This document shows, piece after piece, positions 3,090 to 15,074 of a stretch of 64,000 nt of DNA (its first letter is position 1; every line of letters begins with the position of its first letter). Below the pieces are notes generated by a model. The model saw only the letters and a program-made list of their open reading frames with translations, did not search any database and had not been told where the DNA came from. The DNA lies in assembly GCA_964434285.1 (NCBI GenBank), contig CAYSUJ010000001.1, positions 240,564 to 304,563 on the forward strand. Reading direction: 5' to 3'. A program made the position numbers and the translations under genes. Source of the stretch: an uncultured Candidatus Saccharibacteria bacterium (GTDB lineage Bacteria; Patescibacteriota; Minisyncoccia; Phycocordibacterales; UBA2100).

Positions 3090-3982
3090 AGATTGAGATA
3101 GTGCCCAACCGAGAGCAGCGCGAGACCGCACACGATGAGGCCGACGCCCGTCGCGGATATTGTGCCGCCATGCCCATGCGTGCGCGAACCCTCCCGCTTT
3201 GGCATGCGCTTTGCAAACAAAATCGCGAATACAAACAGAAAGACGAACTGCAAACCGGCGAGCGCGTTTACGATCGTCACGGAGCCGAGCGAGATCGCAA
3301 AGGCCGTGAGTATGCTTGCGACACCGCCGATTACTTTGTTACCCATAACGAGCCCCTTTGAGCGAGACGATGAGTGTCTGCCACCGTGCGTGATCGCTGC
3401 GCGCCACGGTGGCACGATGAGAAGCCCGAGCGCTAAGACCACGTTTGCTGCACGCGTCCAAAAAAATCCATCAATGAACGGGACTTCAAAGAATACGAGC
3501 TTAAATGTGAACGCAACCAGCCCGAAAAAGAAGCCCGAAAGGAGCGTAAAGGAAAGCGCGTTCCGAGAGAAATGGAAGTGAGAGATGAGTGCTGTTCCTC
3601 CCGCAAGCAGAAGAACAGGCAGCACGAACGCGGTTGTGATGTCGTCGTCGATCCAGAGCCCGGCAAAAACGAGTGTCGTAATCGCTGAAACGGCTCCCAC
3701 GACCGGCGCTACGTCTGAGGCCCGACCATGGGTAAGCGCCGAATAGAGGCAGAAAATGGCGGCGACAAACGCGGCTGCGTTAATAAAGGAAAGCGCGAGC
3801 GCATGCACACTGGGGATGGAAACGAACGGAACAAATACAACTACAAAACCCGAAAGCAAAGAAACATAAAACGTGTAGACAATTGGGCGCCCGATGTGCG
3901 TTGCACGCAGAACAATGTGGCGATCAATCAAGACGGAGACCGCGTAGAGAAACTGTGCCACTATCGCGAGCGCGAGATACAT
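3086..3982 (-). CDS. Polytopic membrane protein, DMT/EamA-like
   Basis: 298 aa with about 10 predicted TM helices in two halves. Confidence 0.45.
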   Translation of the reverse strand: MYLALAIVAQFLYAVSVLIDRHIVLRATHIGRPIVYTFYVSLLSGFVVVFVPFVSIPSVHALALSFINAAAFVAAIFCLYSALTHGRASDVAPVVGAVSAITTLVFAGLWIDDDITTAFVLPVLLLAGGTALISHFHFSRNALSFTLLSGFFFGLVAFTFKLVFFEVPFIDGFFWTRAANVVLALGLLIVPPWRAAITHGGRHSSSRSKGLVMGNKVIGGVASILTAFAISLGSVTIVNALAGLQFVFLFVFAILFAKRMPKREGSRTHGHGGTISATGVGLIVCGLALLSVGHYLNL

Positions 3983-3986
3983 TCCT

Positions 3987-5159
3987 CTATTCTAGCAACC
4001 CATTGTGCTCGATGATCTGCTTATACACGTAGGCACTGGGACGTATCTTTCGCTCGAGGGTTTGGTAGTCTATTTCAACGAGCCCGAAGCGCTTTTCAAA
4101 GCCCTGCGCCCATTCGTAATTATCGAGGAGCGACCAATACATGTAGCCGCGCACATCTGCACCTCGCTGGAGCGCTGCATGCATCGCACGCGCGAGGCGG
4201 GTGATGTAATCAGCACGAATCGCATCTTTCGCATCTGCCACCCCCGCCTCGCTCACCCACAGAGGCTTTCCGTAGCGCTTAAGCATCATGAGGGCGCCAT
4301 AGAGCCCCTCAGGATACACATCCCAATTCATGTCGGTTTTCTCGTAAATCTTTGTGTCGCCGAATTTTTTATGCTGATAGTAGTTCACTCCGATGGAGTC
4401 GCATTTATTGTAGACCTGCGAAATAACGTGGTGCGTGGAGATCCAGTTCATGAATCGCGCGCGGAGCTTGTTGATCGGGTTCCCGTTCGCATGAAAATAC
4501 ACGGTGTGATGCACGATACCGACCTCGGCACCGAAGGCAGCCGCCTTAATTGCGTCGTACGCCAGATTGTGTGCGCGCGTGAGATTATTCATAACGCGCC
4601 AGTAGCCGCGATAGTTTTTCTTTCGGAATGGCGGCCAATCACCACGTATCCATCCGAGCGATGCAAACACCGTCGGTTCGTTCATCGTGGCAAAATGGCG
4701 GCAATCGTTCCCAAGCTTCTTCGCGACGTACGCACAGTAGCGAGCGAATATTTCTGGTGACTCTGGATTCTCAAAACCACCCTTCTCCACAAACCACTGT
4801 GGGAGCGTGAAGTGCCACATCGTAACAAACGGCTTTAAACGCCGTTCGCGGAGCGCAGCCAAGACCGCAAGATAATGCCCTATCTCCCGCTCATCAAACT
4901 TCCCTTCTTCCGGCTCGATGCGCGCCCACTCTATAGAGATACGGTGACAGTTGTGCCCAAGCTCTTTCGCGATATCAAAGTCGCTTTCGAAGCGATTGTA
5001 GTGATCGCATGCTTTGTTGCACGGCGGCACGCGCCCTGCGCGTGCCGCCTCCGCCCAATCGCAGTTCTCAATACCCCCCTCGACTTGGTAGCTCGCCGTT
5101 GCGGCGCCCCAGTAGAAACCCTCGGGGAATTTTCGTTCCATGCTACCGAAGCCCGACAT
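3987..5159 (-). CDS. GH1 beta-glucosidase
   Basis: FYWGAATASYQVEGG N-terminal signature, TMNEP acid/base motif, overall GH1 length and layout. Confidence 0.9.
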   Translation of the reverse strand: MSGFGSMERKFPEGFYWGAATASYQVEGGIENCDWAEAARAGRVPPCNKACDHYNRFESDFDIAKELGHNCHRISIEWARIEPEEGKFDEREIGHYLAVLAALRERRLKPFVTMWHFTLPQWFVEKGGFENPESPEIFARYCAYVAKKLGNDCRHFATMNEPTVFASLGWIRGDWPPFRKKNYRGYWRVMNNLTRAHNLAYDAIKAAAFGAEVGIVHHTVYFHANGNPINKLRARFMNWISTHHVISQVYNKCDSIGVNYYQHKKFGDTKIYEKTDMNWDVYPEGLYGALMMLKRYGKPLWVSEAGVADAKDAIRADYITRLARAMHAALQRGADVRGYMYWSLLDNYEWAQGFEKRFGLVEIDYQTLERKIRPSAYVYKQIIEHNGLLE

Positions 5160-5400
5160 GCTTTTCTAGAGCACGAATGCGTTCAAGTGCGTGATCGATC
5201 TCCTTACTATGACCCGAGTGGTCTGAAGTCTGTCTTTCGATATCTTTGATTCGCATTTTTACATCACGTACTTCCTGTCGTATCTGATCGATGTCGTGCT
5301 TTAATCTCTCAATATCGCTTTTATGAGCAACGTGATCGCGCACAAATGTAAAAAGCTCCCCTATTTCACTCGTCTTTTTTGCGGGTCGCTTCTTTTTCAT
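5143..5400 (-). CDS. Hypothetical small coiled-coil protein
   Basis: 85-aa ORF with heptad-like charged repeats. Sits between GH1 and the cupin PGI on the same strand. Confidence 0.35.
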   Translation of the reverse strand: MKKKRPAKKTSEIGELFTFVRDHVAHKSDIERLKHDIDQIRQEVRDVKMRIKDIERQTSDHSGHSKEIDHALERIRALEKHVGLR

Positions 5401-5416
5401 AACATAATTGTACCAC

Positions 5417-5995
5417 TCATTTTTCTACGATCGGCAGCTCGCCGAAATCGGTTTTCTGTACCTCCGTGTAAAGCGAGTTTTTGAGAAGTGCTGGCTTGCC
5501 GTCGCGCTCGACGACGTAGTAGGCGAAGCCGCGCATTTTCTGCACCATCGTGTAATCGGCGTGTCCGGGCATCGCGATTGGGTTCTTCTCATCGAAGTTT
5601 ACGGGCGAGTCGTCTGCGGTCACGAAATAGGTTTTCCCAATGTTCACCGCAAGGTGCCCATGTCCGGGCGGCATATAAACTGAATCTCCTGGTTTTACGA
5701 CTATCGCACGGAAAAGCTCGACACGTGCAGGATCACTTTCGTCGAAAAGTTTCTGCTGAAGAATGACGCCCTTGCCAAGAAGCACCCAATACGTCTCGTC
5801 GAGCTGCCCGATGTGGTAGTGACCATAGGTCTTAATGTACTCGCCGCCCACGGTGCCCGGCTCCCAGACCGTCACGTTGCGCTGATCGCTCCCGCCGCGA
5901 ATCATGTAGTAGTGGATATTCGGCCCAGGCGCATCCGGTACCATCAAAACTTCGCGCATTTTTTCATGGGTACGTGCAGCGTAGTGTTCGATCAT
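5417..5995 (-). CDS. Cupin-type glucose-6-phosphate isomerase (archaeal-type cPGI)
   Basis: EPGTVGGEYIKTYGHYH...ETYW matches the cPGI signature T-x3-P-x3-G-x-E-x3-T-x-GH-x-H...E-x-Y. PPGHGHLAVN matches PP-x3-H-x3-N. Confidence 0.8.
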   Translation of the reverse strand: MIEHYAARTHEKMREVLMVPDAPGPNIHYYMIRGGSDQRNVTVWEPGTVGGEYIKTYGHYHIGQLDETYWVLLGKGVILQQKLFDESDPARVELFRAIVVKPGDSVYMPPGHGHLAVNIGKTYFVTADDSPVNFDEKNPIAMPGHADYTMVQKMRGFAYYVVERDGKPALLKNSLYTEVQKTDFGELPIVEK

Positions 5996-8399: not shown

Positions 8400-8510
8400 A
8401 TCGTAGCATCTTCAATCGAACAATTGGCAATAATCCTTAGGAAAGTCAATTTCGCGCTAGCCGTCATATCTATCGAGGGCATGAATTACTCTAACCCCCT
8501 CCTAATACAT

Positions 8511-9248
8511 ATGACACGCATCACACTACAGCATTATCAGTTCGCACTCGTCGGCATTCTGCTCGCGCTCGCGGCGCTTCCCTTCGGCGTTCATGCCGAT
8601 AGCGATAAGAATAAAAGCTCCTCAAAAGGACTCGGTGGCACGGGAGTTGAAATAAACATCGGCTCGAATGGTGGCGTCTTGGTTCGCGGCGCGAAAGTCA
8701 CCGGCGTTTCGTCCTCGACGATTAACGCGAACACCTCCATCGGCGCATCCATATTGAGTTGGGTGGTTAAAACCGATGGCTCTACGGAATTTACGACGCA
8801 GAATGGCGTAGCGACAGGCCTTTCCGGCATCGCCGTGGGCGATACGATTTCCTTCCGCGGCGCGCTTGATCAGGCGGTTGCCGGACTCACCGTGAACGCA
8901 AAGATCGTGAAGGACTGGAGTCAGGTGGAGACCAAGCGCACGCTCGAAGGCGTTGTGAGCTCGATAAACGCGACACTCGGCTCGTTCACCGTCATCAAGA
9001 ATGATTCGACGACAACCGTGCAAACATCCTCTTCAACACAGTGGAAAGGCGACGCAGATTCCTTCTCTGATCTCATCGTGAATGCGGCAGTGAAGATCAA
9101 AGGCTTCTTCAATGCATCGACCACGGTCATGACGGCGCAGTCCGTTGACGTCGATGATGATAACGATGACAACGAAAGTTGGAGCAGTAATGATAGACAC
9201 GAGTGGCGCGACTGGATCCGCTCAAAGGTCTGGCTGAGCCTCCGCTAA
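8511..9248 (+). CDS. Secreted repeat protein (signal peptide, Ser/Thr/Val-rich beta-repeat)
   Basis: MTRITLQHYQFALVGILLALAALPFGVHA signal peptide. Repeated V-x-G-x-V-x-S/T-I pattern. Acidic C-terminus. Confidence 0.55.
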   Translation: MTRITLQHYQFALVGILLALAALPFGVHADSDKNKSSSKGLGGTGVEINIGSNGGVLVRGAKVTGVSSSTINANTSIGASILSWVVKTDGSTEFTTQNGVATGLSGIAVGDTISFRGALDQAVAGLTVNAKIVKDWSQVETKRTLEGVVSSINATLGSFTVIKNDSTTTVQTSSSTQWKGDADSFSDLIVNAAVKIKGFFNASTTVMTAQSVDVDDDNDDNESWSSNDRHEWRDWIRSKVWLSLR

Positions 9249-9261
9249 ATGCACAGGCACT

Positions 9262-9294
9262 CGGTGCGGCAAGCTCCATTGGAGCTTGCCGCAC
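9262..9294 (+). terminator. Perfect 15-bp hairpin GGTGCGGCAAGCTCC-att-GGAGCTTGCCGCACC 3' of the 8511..9248 gene
   Basis: Read directly. No U-tract follows. Confidence 0.4.
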
Positions 9295-9355
9295 CGCCTT
9301 GTCCCCCATGAGCCCCACACATACAATAGATAAAGGCACTCCTCGTAAGAGGAGC

Positions 9356-9913
9356 ATGGCCTTTGCGTCTTATATGAAAGGCTCCTCGTACGAAGCAGAA
9401 TATCTTTCGGCCTTTGAAATGCACTCAGATGCACTCTTCCGCCACGCATTCTTCCGGCTCTCAAACCGGGACCGCGCGCAAGAGCTCACACAAGAGGCGT
9501 TTCTCAAAACCTGGGACTTTCTGCGCAAGGGGGGCGACGTGCGCGATTTCAAAAGTTTTTTGTATCGCATTTTGAATAATCTCATCATCGACGAGTATCG
9601 AAAGAAGAAATCTTCTTCGCTCGACGAAATACTCGAAGACGATACCGGCGCTTTCGAGGCACGCATGTCAGAGGGTAGCCGTGTCGAGACAGAAACCGAG
9701 CTTGATGAGAAAGTGATCGGCGCGCGTATCCGGGAAAAGATTGAGGAATTGCCCACGATGTATCGTGAGGCGGTCACCATGCGCTTCATCGACGAGCTCT
9801 CGCCAAAAGAAATTGCGGAGATGCTCGGGGAGAGCGAGAACGTCATCTCCGTGCGCATCCATCGTGGAGTCAATAAGCTCAAGCAATTGTGTAGTAATGA
9901 ATCATATGAATAA
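9356..9913 (+). CDS. ECF (sigma-70 family) RNA polymerase sigma factor
   Basis: Region-2 LTQEAFLKTWDFL and region-4 HTH ELSPKEIAEMLGESENVISVRIHRGVNKLK. An RBS-like AGAGGAG sits at 9345-9351. Confidence 0.8.
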   Translation: MAFASYMKGSSYEAEYLSAFEMHSDALFRHAFFRLSNRDRAQELTQEAFLKTWDFLRKGGDVRDFKSFLYRILNNLIIDEYRKKKSSSLDEILEDDTGAFEARMSEGSRVETETELDEKVIGARIREKIEELPTMYREAVTMRFIDELSPKEIAEMLGESENVISVRIHRGVNKLKQLCSNESYE

Positions 9914-11231
9914 CTTTGAAAAACATATCAAGCACACGGGCGCGAGCGTTCATCTTTCGGACGCAGAAAAAGCGCGCATGAAAAGCGTGCTCCAAAGCTA
10001 CATGCGCTTCCATCCCCTACCAGAACCCGTGACCACCTACACAGTGACGCGCGACTGGACACTCTTCCTCTATCGCCCTATCGCGACCTCACTCGTCCTC
10101 GTGCTCGTCGTCGGCTCCGGCGTGTCCTACGCCGCCGAAGGCGCGCTTCCGGGCGACGCGCTCTATACCATCAAGACGAGTGTGAACGAACCCGTGAAAG
10201 TCGCACTTGCCTCCACCGCAGCAGAAAAGGTAGAGGTTGAAATTGAACTCACCGAACGCCGCATCGCAGAGGCAACAGCACTCGCGGCCGACGATCGCCT
10301 CGACGAGATTACCGAAGCTAAGCTCGCAATCGCTCTTGATACACATGCCGAAGCGGCCGCAACTATCATGGAAGAAATCGACGAGGATGACGCGAGCGCG
10401 GGCGCCGAGCTCTCCACACGCTTTGAGACGCGCCTCCGCGCCCGCGAAGACGTCCTCACCGAGGTTCGTCATCAAGGCAAGAATGGAGATTCCGAAAAAA
10501 GCGTCGAGCGCTCGATCCGGACCGCAAGCTCGCGCGTGGCGCTCCTGCGCGAACGCTCCGAAGTCCGTCTCGCACTGGCTCCTGCGCTCGGCGGCAGCCT
10601 CGAAGAGGCTGCCGCCCCAGCGGCTGCAACCATAACCATGGCTGCAAGAGCTGCCACAACGCAAGAAGCAATTTCCCTCACCCTTTCCGCGGATATGGCA
10701 ACAGAAACCACAGAAACCGCTGCAACAAGTGGACCCGCCGTCGAACGGGCGACGGCTGAGCGCATGCACGCCTCTGCCGAGAACAAATTTAAAACAGTGA
10801 GCAAGAAGGCGCGCAAATCCGAGAAAGCCCGCGAGGATCTGAAGATCGCGGAGAACCTTCTCGAAGAGGGCGAAGACCACCTGGGCGATGACGACTACGC
10901 CGCCGCATTCTTCTCCTTCCGCGCCGCACTCGAACAAAGCGAGCGCGTGAGTGTCTTCCTCGATTCCGCAACAATCCTCCAAAAAGCACGCAATAAAAAT
11001 CAGAAGGTGGAGAGTAGAAAAGAGAAGGTGGAAAATGAAAGTCAGATACAAGAAAACAGAAAAGAGACAACAGAAAAAAGCCAAGAGGAGGGTTCCGGAG
11101 ATCAAAAAGATGAAAAGCGCAACGAGGAAAGCGACGATGAGCACAATACTGACGATGACGGGAAAAGCGACACCTCCGGCAGCTCAAAAGTAGAACTCGA
11201 GGTCTCCGGCGGTCTCAACGTCTCGCTCTAA
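9897..11231 (+). CDS. Putative membrane-anchored anti-sigma or co-transcribed partner of the ECF sigma
   Basis: Start overlaps the sigma stop. One TM helix (TSLVLVLVVGSGVSYAA) is followed by long Ala/Glu-rich coiled-coil and Lys/Glu low-complexity sequence. The call is from position and architecture only. Confidence 0.5.
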   Translation: MNHMNNFEKHIKHTGASVHLSDAEKARMKSVLQSYMRFHPLPEPVTTYTVTRDWTLFLYRPIATSLVLVLVVGSGVSYAAEGALPGDALYTIKTSVNEPVKVALASTAAEKVEVEIELTERRIAEATALAADDRLDEITEAKLAIALDTHAEAAATIMEEIDEDDASAGAELSTRFETRLRAREDVLTEVRHQGKNGDSEKSVERSIRTASSRVALLRERSEVRLALAPALGGSLEEAAAPAAATITMAARAATTQEAISLTLSADMATETTETAATSGPAVERATAERMHASAENKFKTVSKKARKSEKAREDLKIAENLLEEGEDHLGDDDYAAAFFSFRAALEQSERVSVFLDSATILQKARNKNQKVESRKEKVENESQIQENRKETTEKSQEEGSGDQKDEKRNEESDDEHNTDDDGKSDTSGSSKVELEVSGGLNVSL

Positions 11232-12154: not shown

Positions 12155-12511
12155 ATGACGAAAACGTTCTTTGCACTCTCAGTGCTTCTGAGCTGGACTG
12201 TTTCGAATGCAGCGACGGCGCAGGATGGCCACCACGGCCATGGACACAGCACGTATCACCCGTGGTACGAAAGTCTCTACGATCACAAAGGCCATTCGTG
12301 CTGCAACGACCGCGATTGCCGCCCAACCGAACATCGTGCAAATGCCGACGGAACGATCGAGGTCATGGTTGACGGCAACTGGATGAAAGTGCCGCCCGAG
12401 AAAATCCTTAACAAGTCTGCACCAGATCTCGGGAGTCATGTCTGTGCAACTCCACCAGTACCGTGGCAACCGACGAAAATTCTCTGCGTGGTTCTCGGTC
12501 ATGGCGTCTGA
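12155..12511 (+). CDS. Small secreted His/Cys-rich protein
   Basis: Signal peptide MTKTFFALSVLLSWTVSNAATA, HGHGH and CC/C motifs. Confidence 0.45.
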   Translation: MTKTFFALSVLLSWTVSNAATAQDGHHGHGHSTYHPWYESLYDHKGHSCCNDRDCRPTEHRANADGTIEVMVDGNWMKVPPEKILNKSAPDLGSHVCATPPVPWQPTKILCVVLGHGV

Positions 12512-12551: not shown

Positions 12552-12582
12552 TTCCAACCTCATCGTCCAGACAAAAAACATC

Positions 12583-12618
12583 CCCGACCAGCGTACGCCG
12601 GTCGGGGACTTTTTCTGA
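12583..12618. terminator. Bidirectional terminator hairpin CCCCGACC-agcgtacgcc-GGTCGGGG with T-runs on both strands
   Basis: ACTTTTT follows on the plus strand and ATGTTTTTT on the minus strand. It sits between the convergent 12155..12511 (+) and 12634..14160 (-) genes. Confidence 0.65.
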
Positions 12619-12633
12619 AAGAACTTCGGAAGG

Positions 12634-14160
12634 TTAGCCGTGAGCTGCCTTGCCCGCGCCGTTGAACGAAAGCTTCATAGCTTGTCCGGCGTTCACGAGG
12701 CCGTCGGCGAGCTTGCTCATGTCGTTGGTGTTGCCACCGGCGACCTGATTCCTGAACATCTCACCCTCAGCTTTCACCTCACGGGCAACGGCTTCGAGGT
12801 CAGCGCCGGTAATTTTGGCGTTGACGTCGCCGGTGCGCCGATTGGCTTCGAGCTCTGCTCGGTTCACAGCTTCCTTGACCCGCGCCGGGATTTCTCCCGC
12901 GAGGATTGCCCCGACACCCGAAAGATCGGTGTTGGGAGCAAGGAGCTTGCCCGCGAACATCTCCACCATCCTAACGACAGTGTCGGCGTCCGGTGCATGC
13001 ACCGGAACGACCAAGTCGATACGACCAGGACGCCGCATAGCAGCGTTGATCTTGTCGGCGTGATTCGAAGTCAGCACCGTTAGGATTTCCGAGGCCTTGC
13101 CGTCGATGCCATCGAGCTGGTTCAGAAGCTCGTTGACCTCTTTCGTGCGATCCAGCCCAGCCACGCGCTCGATGTCTTCAACGAAGACAACGACCGGCTG
13201 GTACTGCACCGCCCACTGCAGAGCCTGCGGGAGCTCGGCCGGATTCTTGACGTAAATGAACGTCCAGCCCGCGGCCGTCGACTCGCGCGCGATGTAACTC
13301 GCGAGCAAGGTCTTGCCGACTCCATACTCGCCCGCGAAGAGCACGCCGCGCTTGAGCGACTTACCCTGCGCCCTGCGCTGTGCCGCATACTTGATCGGCA
13401 CGAGCACGTTCCGGTCGATGGAGTTCTGCAGGTCCTGCCGGAAGATCGGAGTCTCGCCGGTGATCTTGAAGAATTTCGGCTTAGGCATCCGATCCGGCCG
13501 ACCCTGTGCGTCGTGGAACGCGATCGAGAAGGCTTTCCCCTTGTGGAGGCTTTCTTTCGTCGCGATCTCGCGCACTTTCTCGAGCAGACGACGAATGCGC
13601 TGCTCGTAGAGGCGTTTGCATTCGACATGGCACTGAAAGACGATGCGACCATCCTCGAAGGCAGTGTCGGTCCTGACCGTGGCACCGTCCATACCCGGAA
13701 GCTCGAATTGGCCCCAGGGAATCTGAACGGTCTTGCCGAGTTCGACCTCGACGTCGAGTTGGTGCGCATTACCGTCGATCGAGCTCATCTGGTTGAAAAG
13801 CCCGAGTCCGCTCGTGATCGCCTTCTTCAGTGCATGAGCCCCATCCCACGGAGCCACCGGAAGGGTGACGTGGATCTGGGTCCATTGCTGCTCGAAGTCG
13901 TCTTGACGCTCGAGTGCATCGATCACATCGCGCAGCTTCGCACCTTCGGGCAAGATGATTTTGTCGCCCTCGCGCCCGACGGACGGATTGTAGGCTTTCT
14001 CATCGCCACCGCCGGCAAATGCCGCGATGGCAGCCATGAGAGCCGCCTGCGAATCAGAGCCCCGACCGAGGATCTTCTCAAGAATGGCGCGTTCGTTTCC
14101 TTTAAGCTTAGTCATGTTGACTTCTCCGTTTGTTTGGATTGACGTTAGGTTGACGTTCAT
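12634..14160 (-). CDS. Classic-clade AAA ATPase with an N-terminal domain of about 250 aa of unknown function
   Basis: Walker A GVLFAGEYGVGKT, Walker B VVFVEDIERV, second region of homology NHADKINAAMRRPGRIDLV, and a pre-Walker linker of Vps4/FtsH type. The start could instead be MTKLKG at 14115. Confidence 0.85.
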   Translation of the reverse strand: MNVNLTSIQTNGEVNMTKLKGNERAILEKILGRGSDSQAALMAAIAAFAGGGDEKAYNPSVGREGDKIILPEGAKLRDVIDALERQDDFEQQWTQIHVTLPVAPWDGAHALKKAITSGLGLFNQMSSIDGNAHQLDVEVELGKTVQIPWGQFELPGMDGATVRTDTAFEDGRIVFQCHVECKRLYEQRIRRLLEKVREIATKESLHKGKAFSIAFHDAQGRPDRMPKPKFFKITGETPIFRQDLQNSIDRNVLVPIKYAAQRRAQGKSLKRGVLFAGEYGVGKTLLASYIARESTAAGWTFIYVKNPAELPQALQWAVQYQPVVVFVEDIERVAGLDRTKEVNELLNQLDGIDGKASEILTVLTSNHADKINAAMRRPGRIDLVVPVHAPDADTVVRMVEMFAGKLLAPNTDLSGVGAILAGEIPARVKEAVNRAELEANRRTGDVNAKITGADLEAVAREVKAEGEMFRNQVAGGNTNDMSKLADGLVNAGQAMKLSFNGAGKAAHG

Positions 14161-14162
14161 CC

Positions 14163-14408
14163 TCAGGCATTCTCGAGGCAGACATCTACTGCTCTCGGAA
14201 CTTTATTGCCTGCGGAATCATCGACAGTACCAATGGCGAAATGGACGTTGAGTCCACGCGCGAGCTCCAATCCTCCTCGGACTGAAGCCACGACGAACTT
14301 GCGTCCGTCGTATTGGCTAGCATAGTCTTTCACACGCACCGTCCAGACTGTTCGTCCGACCGCCGCGAGATGAGACCCGCTGACAAAGCCGCGATGTCTT
14401 GCATTCAT
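14163..14408 (-). CDS. Hypothetical 81-aa protein (operon with the AAA ATPase)
   Basis: ORF sits 2 nt from the AAA gene start on the same strand. Confidence 0.4.
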   Translation of the reverse strand: MNARHRGFVSGSHLAAVGRTVWTVRVKDYASQYDGRKFVVASVRGGLELARGLNVHFAIGTVDDSAGNKVPRAVDVCLENA

Positions 14409-14417
14409 CGCAGCCTC

Positions 14418-14894
14418 CTAGTGACGCGTCGATGGTTTTTCTCCCGTCGCGGAAGTGCCGCCGAAACGTTCACGAAGCGAGTCGAGAAATTCTTTCAGGC
14501 CTTCGCCATCAAGAACGCCGACAAGATTTTCGTGATCCGTCCAAACGACTTTCCAACCCTTCCTGATACCGATGTTGGGCTTCGCCCACAGTTCAGGAAA
14601 AGCATGGCGACACGAGACCCAGAACATGTCCTTAAGGACATCTGCCTGGGTGTCAAAGTATGCAGCTTCAGCCAACTTCTCCTCGCGCTCCTTTCCTCGG
14701 AGCATGAGGACGGCTGCTGCCGCCTCTTTGGACTTCTTCTGGTATTCGAGCATGAGGAAGAAGAGCCTGCGCATATCCTGGTCGGCAATGCCGACAGGAG
14801 TATCGTGCTCGCACCCTTCGTAATCAGGCTCGACAGAATCCTCATCCGTAACCCTAGCGAGCTCAGCCTGAATCGATTTAAGCCATGATGTCAT
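14418..14894 (-). CDS. Hypothetical 158-aa protein (first gene of the AAA operon)
   Basis: AAAGGAG RBS 7 nt upstream on the minus strand. No recognisable motifs. Confidence 0.45.
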   Translation of the reverse strand: MTSWLKSIQAELARVTDEDSVEPDYEGCEHDTPVGIADQDMRRLFFLMLEYQKKSKEAAAAVLMLRGKEREEKLAEAAYFDTQADVLKDMFWVSCRHAFPELWAKPNIGIRKGWKVVWTDHENLVGVLDGEGLKEFLDSLRERFGGTSATGEKPSTRH

Positions 14895-15074
14895 GGCCGT
14901 CTCCTTTCTGACACTAGTTGACGTTATGACAGTAAGTAGTTTTTAGGCTGATTTACCTCCTTTTTCAAAGATCGAAAATCCGTCTCCATTTGGAGACGAG
15001 GTAGGATTATAATACAATAATGTGTATCCTGTCAAATACAATTTTGCTTTATTCATTTGCTATAATCCCGTTGC

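Follow-up and report, generated by a model that had tools for sequence, protein, structure and literature searches.

The window analysed here, a stretch of 64,000 nucleotides (nt) from an uncultured Candidatus Saccharibacteria bacterium of the Candidate Phyla Radiation (CPR; contig CAYSUJ010000001.1), carries on its minus strand an operon of three genes, encoding two small proteins of 158 and 81 amino acids (aa), p158 and p81, and an AAA ATPase. Its best explanation, which we hold at about even confidence, is a protein-remodelling module: a phage-derived ATPase of the Bcs1/YjoB kind acting with p158 and p81 as an adaptor/client pair. The ATPase, a Bcs1/YjoB-type AAA protein of a phage BCS1-like family, is of an already known kind; neither the pairing of p158 with p81 nor its deployment alongside two unrelated AAA machines turned up in the libraries and literature searched. 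Of the classical AAA machines, only those of the Bcs1 type are known to move proteins in the folded state, and outside mitochondria only YjoB has been studied, the many phage copies having no known role or partner. A Bcs1-type ATPase with two conserved co-transcribed small partners would offer a biochemical handle on who binds whom and on whether the client is folded or threaded.

The operon is one minus-strand transcript, because a single sigma-70 promoter, three Shine-Dalgarno sites and one terminator serve its three genes. As annotated, the open reading frames (ORFs) occupy 14418-14894 (158 aa), 14163-14408 (81 aa) and 12634-14160 (508 aa), with gaps of 9 nt and 2 nt; a preliminary description of this DNA had reported this layout with an AAAGGAG ribosome-binding site and a bidirectional terminator, and all of these were found. 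It had also proposed an alternative ATPase start, MTKLKG at 14115, which we adopt: this ATG has GGAG 8 nt upstream and gives a protein of 493 aa, an identical database protein (P0001) is likewise 493 aa long, and in two relatives (loci L134 and L136) an indel leaves the upstream ATG in a different frame from the conserved start. The gap between p81 and the ATPase therefore becomes 47 nt. The Shine-Dalgarno sequence of p81, AGGAGG, overlaps the p158 stop codon, a placement that suggests translational coupling. The principal features, all on the minus strand, are the following:

15006..15035, minus strand: sigma-70-type promoter, TTGACA-18-TATAAT (12/12 match), with TTGACA at the equivalent place in L004 and L024
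14901..14907, minus strand: Shine-Dalgarno sequence AAAGGAG of p158, 6 nt before its first ATG
14418..14894, minus strand: p158, acidic (isoelectric point, pI, 5.2), soluble, of an unannotated family
14163..14408, minus strand: p81, modelled as a basic five-stranded OB-fold/cold-shock-like barrel, short form without C-terminal tail
12634..14115, minus strand: AAA ATPase, 493 aa, soluble, Bcs1/YjoB-like, of phage family phrog_10440
13432..14115, minus strand: N-terminal domain (NTD) of the ATPase (about residues 1-228), the first ~45 residues flexible, then an alpha/beta helix-grip-like core at residues 47-187 (AlphaFold2 model, pLDDT 85)
12781..13431, minus strand: AAA module, pore loop 1 absent
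13309-13332, minus strand: Walker A, GEYGVGKT
13174-13194, minus strand: Walker B, VVVFVED
13015-13047, minus strand: sensor-1 Asn and two Arg fingers, NAAMRRPGRID
12637..12780, minus strand: C-terminal tail of ~48 aa with a short helix-like motif, LADGL..A, semi-conserved in CPR homologues
12580..12609, minus strand: intrinsic terminator usable in both directions, a 13-bp GC-rich hairpin with T-runs on both strands, 25 nt past the ATPase stop

The sequence of the ATPase identifies it as a classical-clade AAA protein: the classic signature recognised at the outset (GEYGVGKT, VVFVED, RRPGRID) is present, Pfam calls one AAA domain (PF00004, E=5e-16, 59.7 bits against a gathering cut-off of 21.2), N351, R362 and R365 are invariant in 41 ATPase-family sequences, and residues ~245-465 align with Cdc48/p97, FtsH and PAN in sequence searches of the PDB. 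The further proposal of an unfoldase in the style of Vps4, FtsH, Cdc48 and Msp1 does not hold, however: the protein has lost pore loop 1, its pore-loop-2 region is short and its Walker B ends in ED. In this VVFVED, E313 and D314 are invariant across the same 41 sequences; an ED Walker B is exceptional to Bcs1 and YjoB among classical AAA proteins, and both are active (PMC9565160). In a MAFFT alignment of the window ATPase, two homologues, the protein of phage FSL SP-076, mouse Bcs1 (PDB 6uko_A, residues 233-372), Cdc48 D1 and an ARC-like ATPase from a CPR genome, mouse Bcs1 agrees with the family in ED and in an 11-residue gap at pore loop 1, where Cdc48 D1 has KMAGESESNLR and the ARC-like ATPase RFVGVAEATIR; in the pore-loop-2 region the family is short by a further 7 residues. 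An AlphaFold2 model of the NTD (residues 1-240, pLDDT 85) has Bcs1 as its best Foldseek match in the PDB (8t14_A, E=7e-4, prob 0.96, with low TM-scores of 0.24-0.29), followed lower down by other Bcs1 entries and the YjoB NTD, and in BFVD a mimivirus 'Mitochondrial chaperone' comes first, then giant-virus and phage AAA ATPases without Bcs1 annotation. ED, the missing pore loop 1, the shortened pore-loop-2 region and, more tentatively, the NTD match are derived traits that align the ATPase with the Bcs1/YjoB branch of the classical AAA clade, and it probably handles folded clients instead of threading them.

Several assignments were tried and rejected. Membership of the threading class as a whole (Cdc48, FtsH, PAN, Vps4, Msp1) is contradicted by the absence of pore loop 1 and by ED in place of hhhhDE. 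FtsH itself reaches only 47 bits against a cut-off of 600 (TIGR01241), in the AAA region only, and the ATPase has no transmembrane segment. The Mpa/ARC/PAN type scores 35 bits with TIGR03689 and ~56 with PAN models, all far below cut-off and again in the AAA region only, and the NTD model is alpha/beta, unlike the coiled coil and OB domain of those proteins. Two comparisons with Bcs1 were of little use: ranking Bcs1 among PDB entries by sequence profile was uninformative, two-domain Cdc48/p97 filling the list, and BLASTP against a Bcs1 fragment aligned the second region of homology alone.

Among characterised proteins, Bacillus subtilis YjoB (PDB 7W42/7W43/7W46) is comparable in having a single classical AAA module behind an alpha/beta NTD of ~160-230 aa, an ED Walker B and a cytoplasmic location with no membrane anchor, and its NTD is among the Foldseek matches (PMC9565160). 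The window ATPase is soluble like YjoB, as it has no hydrophobic segment (maximum Kyte-Doolittle(19) = 1.04). The two NTDs have no detectable sequence similarity, however, and YjoB, which is described as confined to Bacillales, is without small partners of its own. Mitochondrial Bcs1 (PDB 6UKO, 6SH3, 8T14), a heptameric translocase of the folded Rieske protein, shares ED and the pore-loop-1 gap and is the top NTD match, but it has an N-terminal transmembrane helix that the ATPase lacks, its BCS1_N domain is not found here, the cores are only 24% identical and the pore-loop-2 region is shortened further in the window protein.

The closest kin of the ATPase outside the CPR are viral proteins. 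Its sequence, NTD included, places it in the phage-borne family phrog_10440 (E=1.8e-103, residues 55-473 on profile positions 11-439 of 483), and 347 relatives occur in IMG/VR; together with the Bcs1 match of the NTD model, this disposes of the earlier view that the NTD is novel. By tblastn, the family is present in 106 phage records at 35-38% identity over >80% of the ATPase length, the homology running through NTD and AAA module alike; carriers include Schitoviridae (N4-like) phages of Salmonella, Klebsiella, Escherichia and Pseudomonas, and the copies are annotated variously as FtsH or FtsH-like, cell division protein or metalloprotease. A closer clade (45-92% identity) occurs in Patescibacteria/CPR metagenome-assembled genomes labelled Saccharibacteria, Parcubacteria, Moranbacteria, Peribacteria and Paceibacteria, and the nearest relatives beyond it are all viral. 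Composition also sets the ATPase gene apart: its GC (0.602) and GC at third codon positions (GC3, 0.739) are higher than in any of the other 30 long genes in the window (mean GC 0.542, mean GC3 0.614 with a standard deviation of 0.043), while p81 and p158 have an unremarkable composition. N4-like phages have the ATPase gene in an early/middle region that also contains the genes for RNA polymerase, helicase and DNA polymerase, and in two of them (L001:2766-4926, L003:7507-9689) it is beside or ~1 kb from a gene pair for a MoxR-type AAA ATPase and a vWA/metalloprotease-like protein. BCS1 orthologues in jumbo phages, possibly of the same family as phrog_10440, were noted by Iyer et al. 2021 (PMC7824862), who proposed that they move folded proteins when virions are assembled. 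Nothing in a chromosomal CPR cassette obviously corresponds to such a phage role in membrane-proximal virion assembly and, unlike the window operon, the phage phrog_10440 genes have no p81 partner and rarely a p158-like one.

The linkage of the small genes to the ATPase is conserved in part. The exact trio p158-p81-ATPase is found in at least six related CPR lineages (the window, L004, L006/L047, L133, L134/L135 and L136/L137). In the window, L134 and L136, an ABC-transporter gene and a HAD-hydrolase gene, the same in all three, flank it; in L004 and L133 its context is another. Between L134 and the window, identity is 92% for the ATPase, 85% for p81 and 70% for p158. Of loci with enough downstream DNA, 15 of 16 have an AAA ATPase directly after p81. 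The ATPase is neither an FtsH nor a ClpX paralogue, and the small genes, suggested at the outset as possible partners, are indeed kept beside it in the closest relatives, but they are missing from more distant CPR and phage homologues; no universal partner emerged across 114 loci, where neighbours are lineage-specific only. Genes resembling p158 recur around the ATPase: two paralogues in L008, three in L017, and one directly after the ATPase in viral contig L058. Hidden Markov models detect p158-like ORFs in viral loci L056, L058 and L132, and pattern scans of IMG/VR for p81 and p158 found none or one. In L017 (L017:3124-6726), the ATPase is split by a frameshift (3880-4884, 4814-5419) and could therefore be a pseudogene or an assembly error.

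The two small proteins are of different character. The conserved core of p158 spans residues 1-125 (IFWxSxRDxFxLWxKxxIGIRKGWKVVW) and is followed by a variable, acidic C-terminal tail ending S-[KR]-x-H. The protein has no match in Pfam, PHROG, PADLOC, NCBIfam or the PDB, and its comparison with the ATPase was negative. Run against 1.8 billion representatives, a p158 profile collects 946 clusters of 50% identity with E<=1e-3, of which 276 have E<=1e-10; most are proteins of 130-165 aa, and none of the members so found matches Pfam or PHROGs. Among ten members checked, two are named (Candidatus Niyogibacteria; 'bacterium') and two sit alone among core genes; the family is at least partly CPR, and those few members that carry a source name or lie on a long contig are CPR. 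The operon gives a first context to part of this large unannotated family, whose traceable members are CPR. A lone, distant p158-like gene (L147:5001-5405) is just upstream of the genes for ribosomal proteins L3, L4, L23 and L2 on a 485-kb, presumably CPR contig, with no p81 or AAA gene near it, and the p158 family at large is therefore not tied to ATPases. Turning to p81 (pI 9.9, family median 9.2), it has 59 close relatives at 63-86% identity, the named ones CPR, and models as a basic OB-fold barrel (AlphaFold2, pLDDT 86): strands 5-14, 20-26, 37-40, 54-63 and 69-78 follow the OB topology, with a helix between beta3 and beta4. Foldseek matches are SSB, cold-shock domains and ribosomal protein S12 (prob up to 1.0, E-values only 0.02-0.1; TM 0.62/0.72 with CspC), and sequence profiles from Pfam, PHROG, PADLOC, NCBIfam and the PDB give no match, nor are RNP1/RNP2-type motifs present. 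A derivation of p81, as a free-standing copy, from the N-domain of the ARC-like ATPase or from the NTD of the present one was discarded (hhalign probability <1%).

The same pair is also found with another machine. Eight of the 15 ATPases adjoining p81 are of a different type: proteins of 520-580 aa that begin with a coiled coil and have an OB region and a canonical FVG pore loop. Among family models they fit that of the Mpa/ARC proteasome ATPase best (TIGR03689, 322 bits where the cut-off is 505), and they are usually followed by a DUF1360 membrane protein. This sister module (L042:5001-7616; L044:5070-7585; L138:5928-9620; L139:6338-9667) has the order (p158-like gene), long form of p81, ARC/Mpa-like ATPase, small ORF and DUF1360 membrane protein, with the p81 stop overlapping the ATPase start; L138 and L139 have the p158-like gene, then p81, then the ATPase. 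Since p158-p81 precedes either ATPase type, the pair is the constant element and the ATPase the exchangeable one, and p158-p81 look like a shared cofactor or client pair. Its link to a proteasome-type unfoldase as well offers a natural experiment on the matching of adaptors or clients to threading and non-threading AAA rings. The p81 tail follows the partner: it measures 2-9 aa in 8 of 9 loci with a Bcs1-like ATPase, and 17-22 aa, disordered, with an ARC-like one, ending [KR][SP]GGQS in 8 of 9 loci. This GGQS recalls the C-terminal GGQ of Pup, a resemblance to be taken as a lead only. The resemblance to Mpa/ARC/PAN with Pup concerns those other CPR loci, where p158-p81 precedes the TIGR03689-like ATPase, and it has limits: the window ATPase is of the other type, and the model of p81 is that of a folded OB barrel and not of a disordered tag. 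Near the ARC-like ATPase loci, neither a Dop/PafA ligase nor proteasome genes were seen. Bcs1-like and ARC/Mpa-like ATPases lie 0.6-3.5 kb apart in phage/prophage contigs (L032:6001-9145, L144:2049-7087, L145:4980-9832); both types are from the phage gene pool, and this proximity suggests that they act in one phage pathway. In L138, the module is within a long run of small unannotated co-directional genes.

How might the window module work? The ATPase would form a ring, its NTDs capping a chamber as in YjoB (a hexamer) or Bcs1 (a heptamer), and ATP would be used to hold, remodel or release a folded client without chain threading. In such a scheme, p158 and p81 would be the adaptor/client pair of the ATPase. 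The handled client, or perhaps a coupling subunit, is likelier to be p81, because its tail correlates with the pore loop of the partner ATPase, and p158 could be the specificity element, given its fast divergence and local paralogy. The setting is probably that of a domesticated phage or mobile-element cassette for protein remodelling, in conflict between phage and host or element and host, serving defence or takeover; this is proposed because the ATPase is of phage origin, its GC3 is an outlier and its distribution is patchy.

A number of observations weigh against this reading. (i), START/Bet v1 folds score about as well as Bcs1 at the TM-scores of 0.24-0.29 obtained with the NTD model, Pfam BCS1_N has no match in the ATPase at E<=1, and in the alignment described above the AAA core is 24% identical to Bcs1 and 30% to Cdc48 D1; the core being no closer to Bcs1 than to Cdc48 D1, the ED motif and the loop loss could be convergent. 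(ii), among 21 CPR-type ATPase loci, 14 lack both small genes, 3 have p81 and 4 a p158-like gene, nearly all phage homologues lack both, distant p158-like genes stand alone, for example within a ribosomal-protein cluster, and in L040 (195-868) a p158-like/p81 pair is followed by ORFs of 82 aa and 184 aa, with no AAA ATPase in 2.9 kb downstream. (iii), the tail rule has exceptions, L006 having an 18-aa tail with a Bcs1-like partner and L048 no GGQS motif, and a single mechanism does not easily accommodate a pair serving a threading ATPase in some loci and a non-threading one in others. (iv), no integrase or phage structural genes are present in the neighbourhood of the operon.

The last point touches on what we regard as an unlikely explanation, albeit the best placed of the alternatives: a housekeeping, substrate-specific CPR chaperone like Bacillus YjoB, vertically inherited, with p158 and p81 as ordinary clients or co-chaperones and the phage link reflecting shared ancestry only. 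The flanks of the operon are housekeeping genes without mobility genes (a prophage context of the window was rejected on this ground), its place between the ABC transporter and the HAD hydrolase is kept in close relatives, and a different CPR group has conserved synteny around its own ATPase (L014, L015, L018); to this may be added a strong promoter of constitutive type, the YjoB precedent (PMC9565160) and the fact that the p158-like family is common in CPR genomes, often alone among core genes. A vertically inherited chaperone would not, however, readily account for the patchy distribution and the different contexts in the more distant L004 and L133, for the outlying GC and GC3 of the ATPase gene, for nearest non-CPR relatives that are all viral or for the quick divergence of p158.

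The sister module leads to a broader proposal, which we also judge unlikely and put forward with a little less conviction: p158-p81 would be a previously undescribed cofactor/client pair, specific to the CPR, that fits interchangeable AAA+ machines of phage derivation. In loci with the ARC/Mpa-like unfoldase, the conserved C-terminal [KR]SGGQS of p81 would serve as a Pup-like handle attached to the folded OB domain; in those with the Bcs1-like ATPase, which lacks pore loop 1, p81 without a tail would be handled, still folded, within the NTD-capped chamber. If true, ultra-small bacteria that have no proteasome would possess a new ATP-driven system of regulation or targeting, and this would be the first bacterial machine of the Bcs1 type to be defined by its partners.

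Anti-phage defence, in which the ATPase would be a sensor or remodeller and the small proteins a sensor/effector pair, as in TRIP13-HORMA (CBASS) or IetAS, appears clearly doubtful. The general plan, an AAA ATPase beside small partner genes, is shared with these systems, the cassette is small and patchily distributed with a fast-evolving component, the L138 module sits in its run of small unannotated genes, and there are weak matches to IetA and TRIP13 models. These matches, however, are limited to ~60-95 residues of the common AAA core: TRIP13 models cover residues 342-401 only (E=2.7e-5), and the IetA match is partial, its best stretch being residues 342-435 (E=6.7e-9), with NCBIfam IteA at 28 bits against a cut-off of 510. 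PADLOC returned no system-level match, no HORMA or cyclase model matched any of the genes, no protease or nuclease is encoded, and p81 adopts an OB fold in its model; the TRIP13/HORMA idea of the preliminary description is not supported. For p81 and p158, PADLOC has no match beyond NsnC (E=0.007) and no effector domain is recognisable, and the ATPase family is itself encoded by lytic phages.

We give little credence to a nucleic-acid module, with p81 binding single-stranded DNA or RNA and the ATPase remodelling a nucleoprotein complex in replication or transcription. The basic charge of p81 and the resemblance of its model to SSB, cold-shock domains and S12 would fit, as would the position of the N4-like phage ATPase among polymerase and helicase genes, and the acidic p158 could mimic nucleic acid. 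Yet the Foldseek E-values of p81 are weak, RNP1/RNP2-type motifs and sequence matches to solved OB proteins are lacking, p81 is absent from phage loci, and classical-clade AAA proteins act on proteins. Finally, that the three genes are unrelated neighbours and their adjacency meaningless is scarcely credible: most ATPase homologues do lack the small genes, but conservation data contradict it: order and spacing of the trio are unchanged across at least six lineages, in several genomic settings, p81 is followed by an AAA ATPase in nearly every locus, and the Shine-Dalgarno placement suggests coupling.

The 5' leader and the spacer before the ATPase gene contain further elements:

14980..14999, minus strand: stem-loop at the predicted 5' end of the mRNA, then a U-rich run; hairpin and T-run at the same place in L004 and L024
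14955..14975, minus strand: leader element CTTTGAAAA...AAAGGAGG, ~60 nt 5' of the start codon, conserved in an alignment of the window, L004 and L024
14918..14925, minus strand: copy of AACGTCAA in the 5' untranslated region, partly kept in L004 as CGTCAAC
14139-14146 and 14150-14157, minus strand: two copies of AACGTCAA, 11 nt apart, in the 47-nt spacer between p81 and the ATPase

The order TTGACA promoter, hairpin with T-run and CTTTGAAAA...AAAGGAGG is common to the window (14955-15035, minus strand), L004:1735-1810 and L024:5538-5625. The stem-loop could be a 5' stabiliser or an attenuator, and no Rfam match points to a regulatory RNA in the leader. The CTTTGAAAA...AAAGGAGG element is a strong Shine-Dalgarno-like sequence ~60 nt before the real start, with no obvious start codon behind it. 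As for AACGTCAA, suggested earlier as an operator, its three copies exist, but the upstream one is at 14918-14925 and not at 14913-14921, and the 64-kb window holds 5 copies against 2.6 expected, a count reached in 12 of 100 shuffles and not above chance, so it was rejected as a significant motif. The tandem pair is whole in L134, half kept in L136 and single in L004; an operator function is possible but unproven, because the count is not above chance and only one relative keeps the pair in full.

Two neighbouring loci deserve mention. Between the ATPase and the HAD hydrolase, at 12155-12511 on the plus strand, is a gene whose 118-aa product begins with a sequence resembling a signal peptide, contains many His and Cys residues (HGHGH..., CCNDRDC) and has no Pfam match; the gene is absent from this place in the syntenic L134 and L136 and therefore looks like a local insertion. 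Further along, at 8424-11231 on the plus strand, a DUF5666 protein and a DUF5667 protein are encoded on either side of an ECF-type sigma factor (9203-9913); the DUF5667 protein is long, acidic and probably anti-sigma-like, and its gene is also kept beside the HAD gene in L136.

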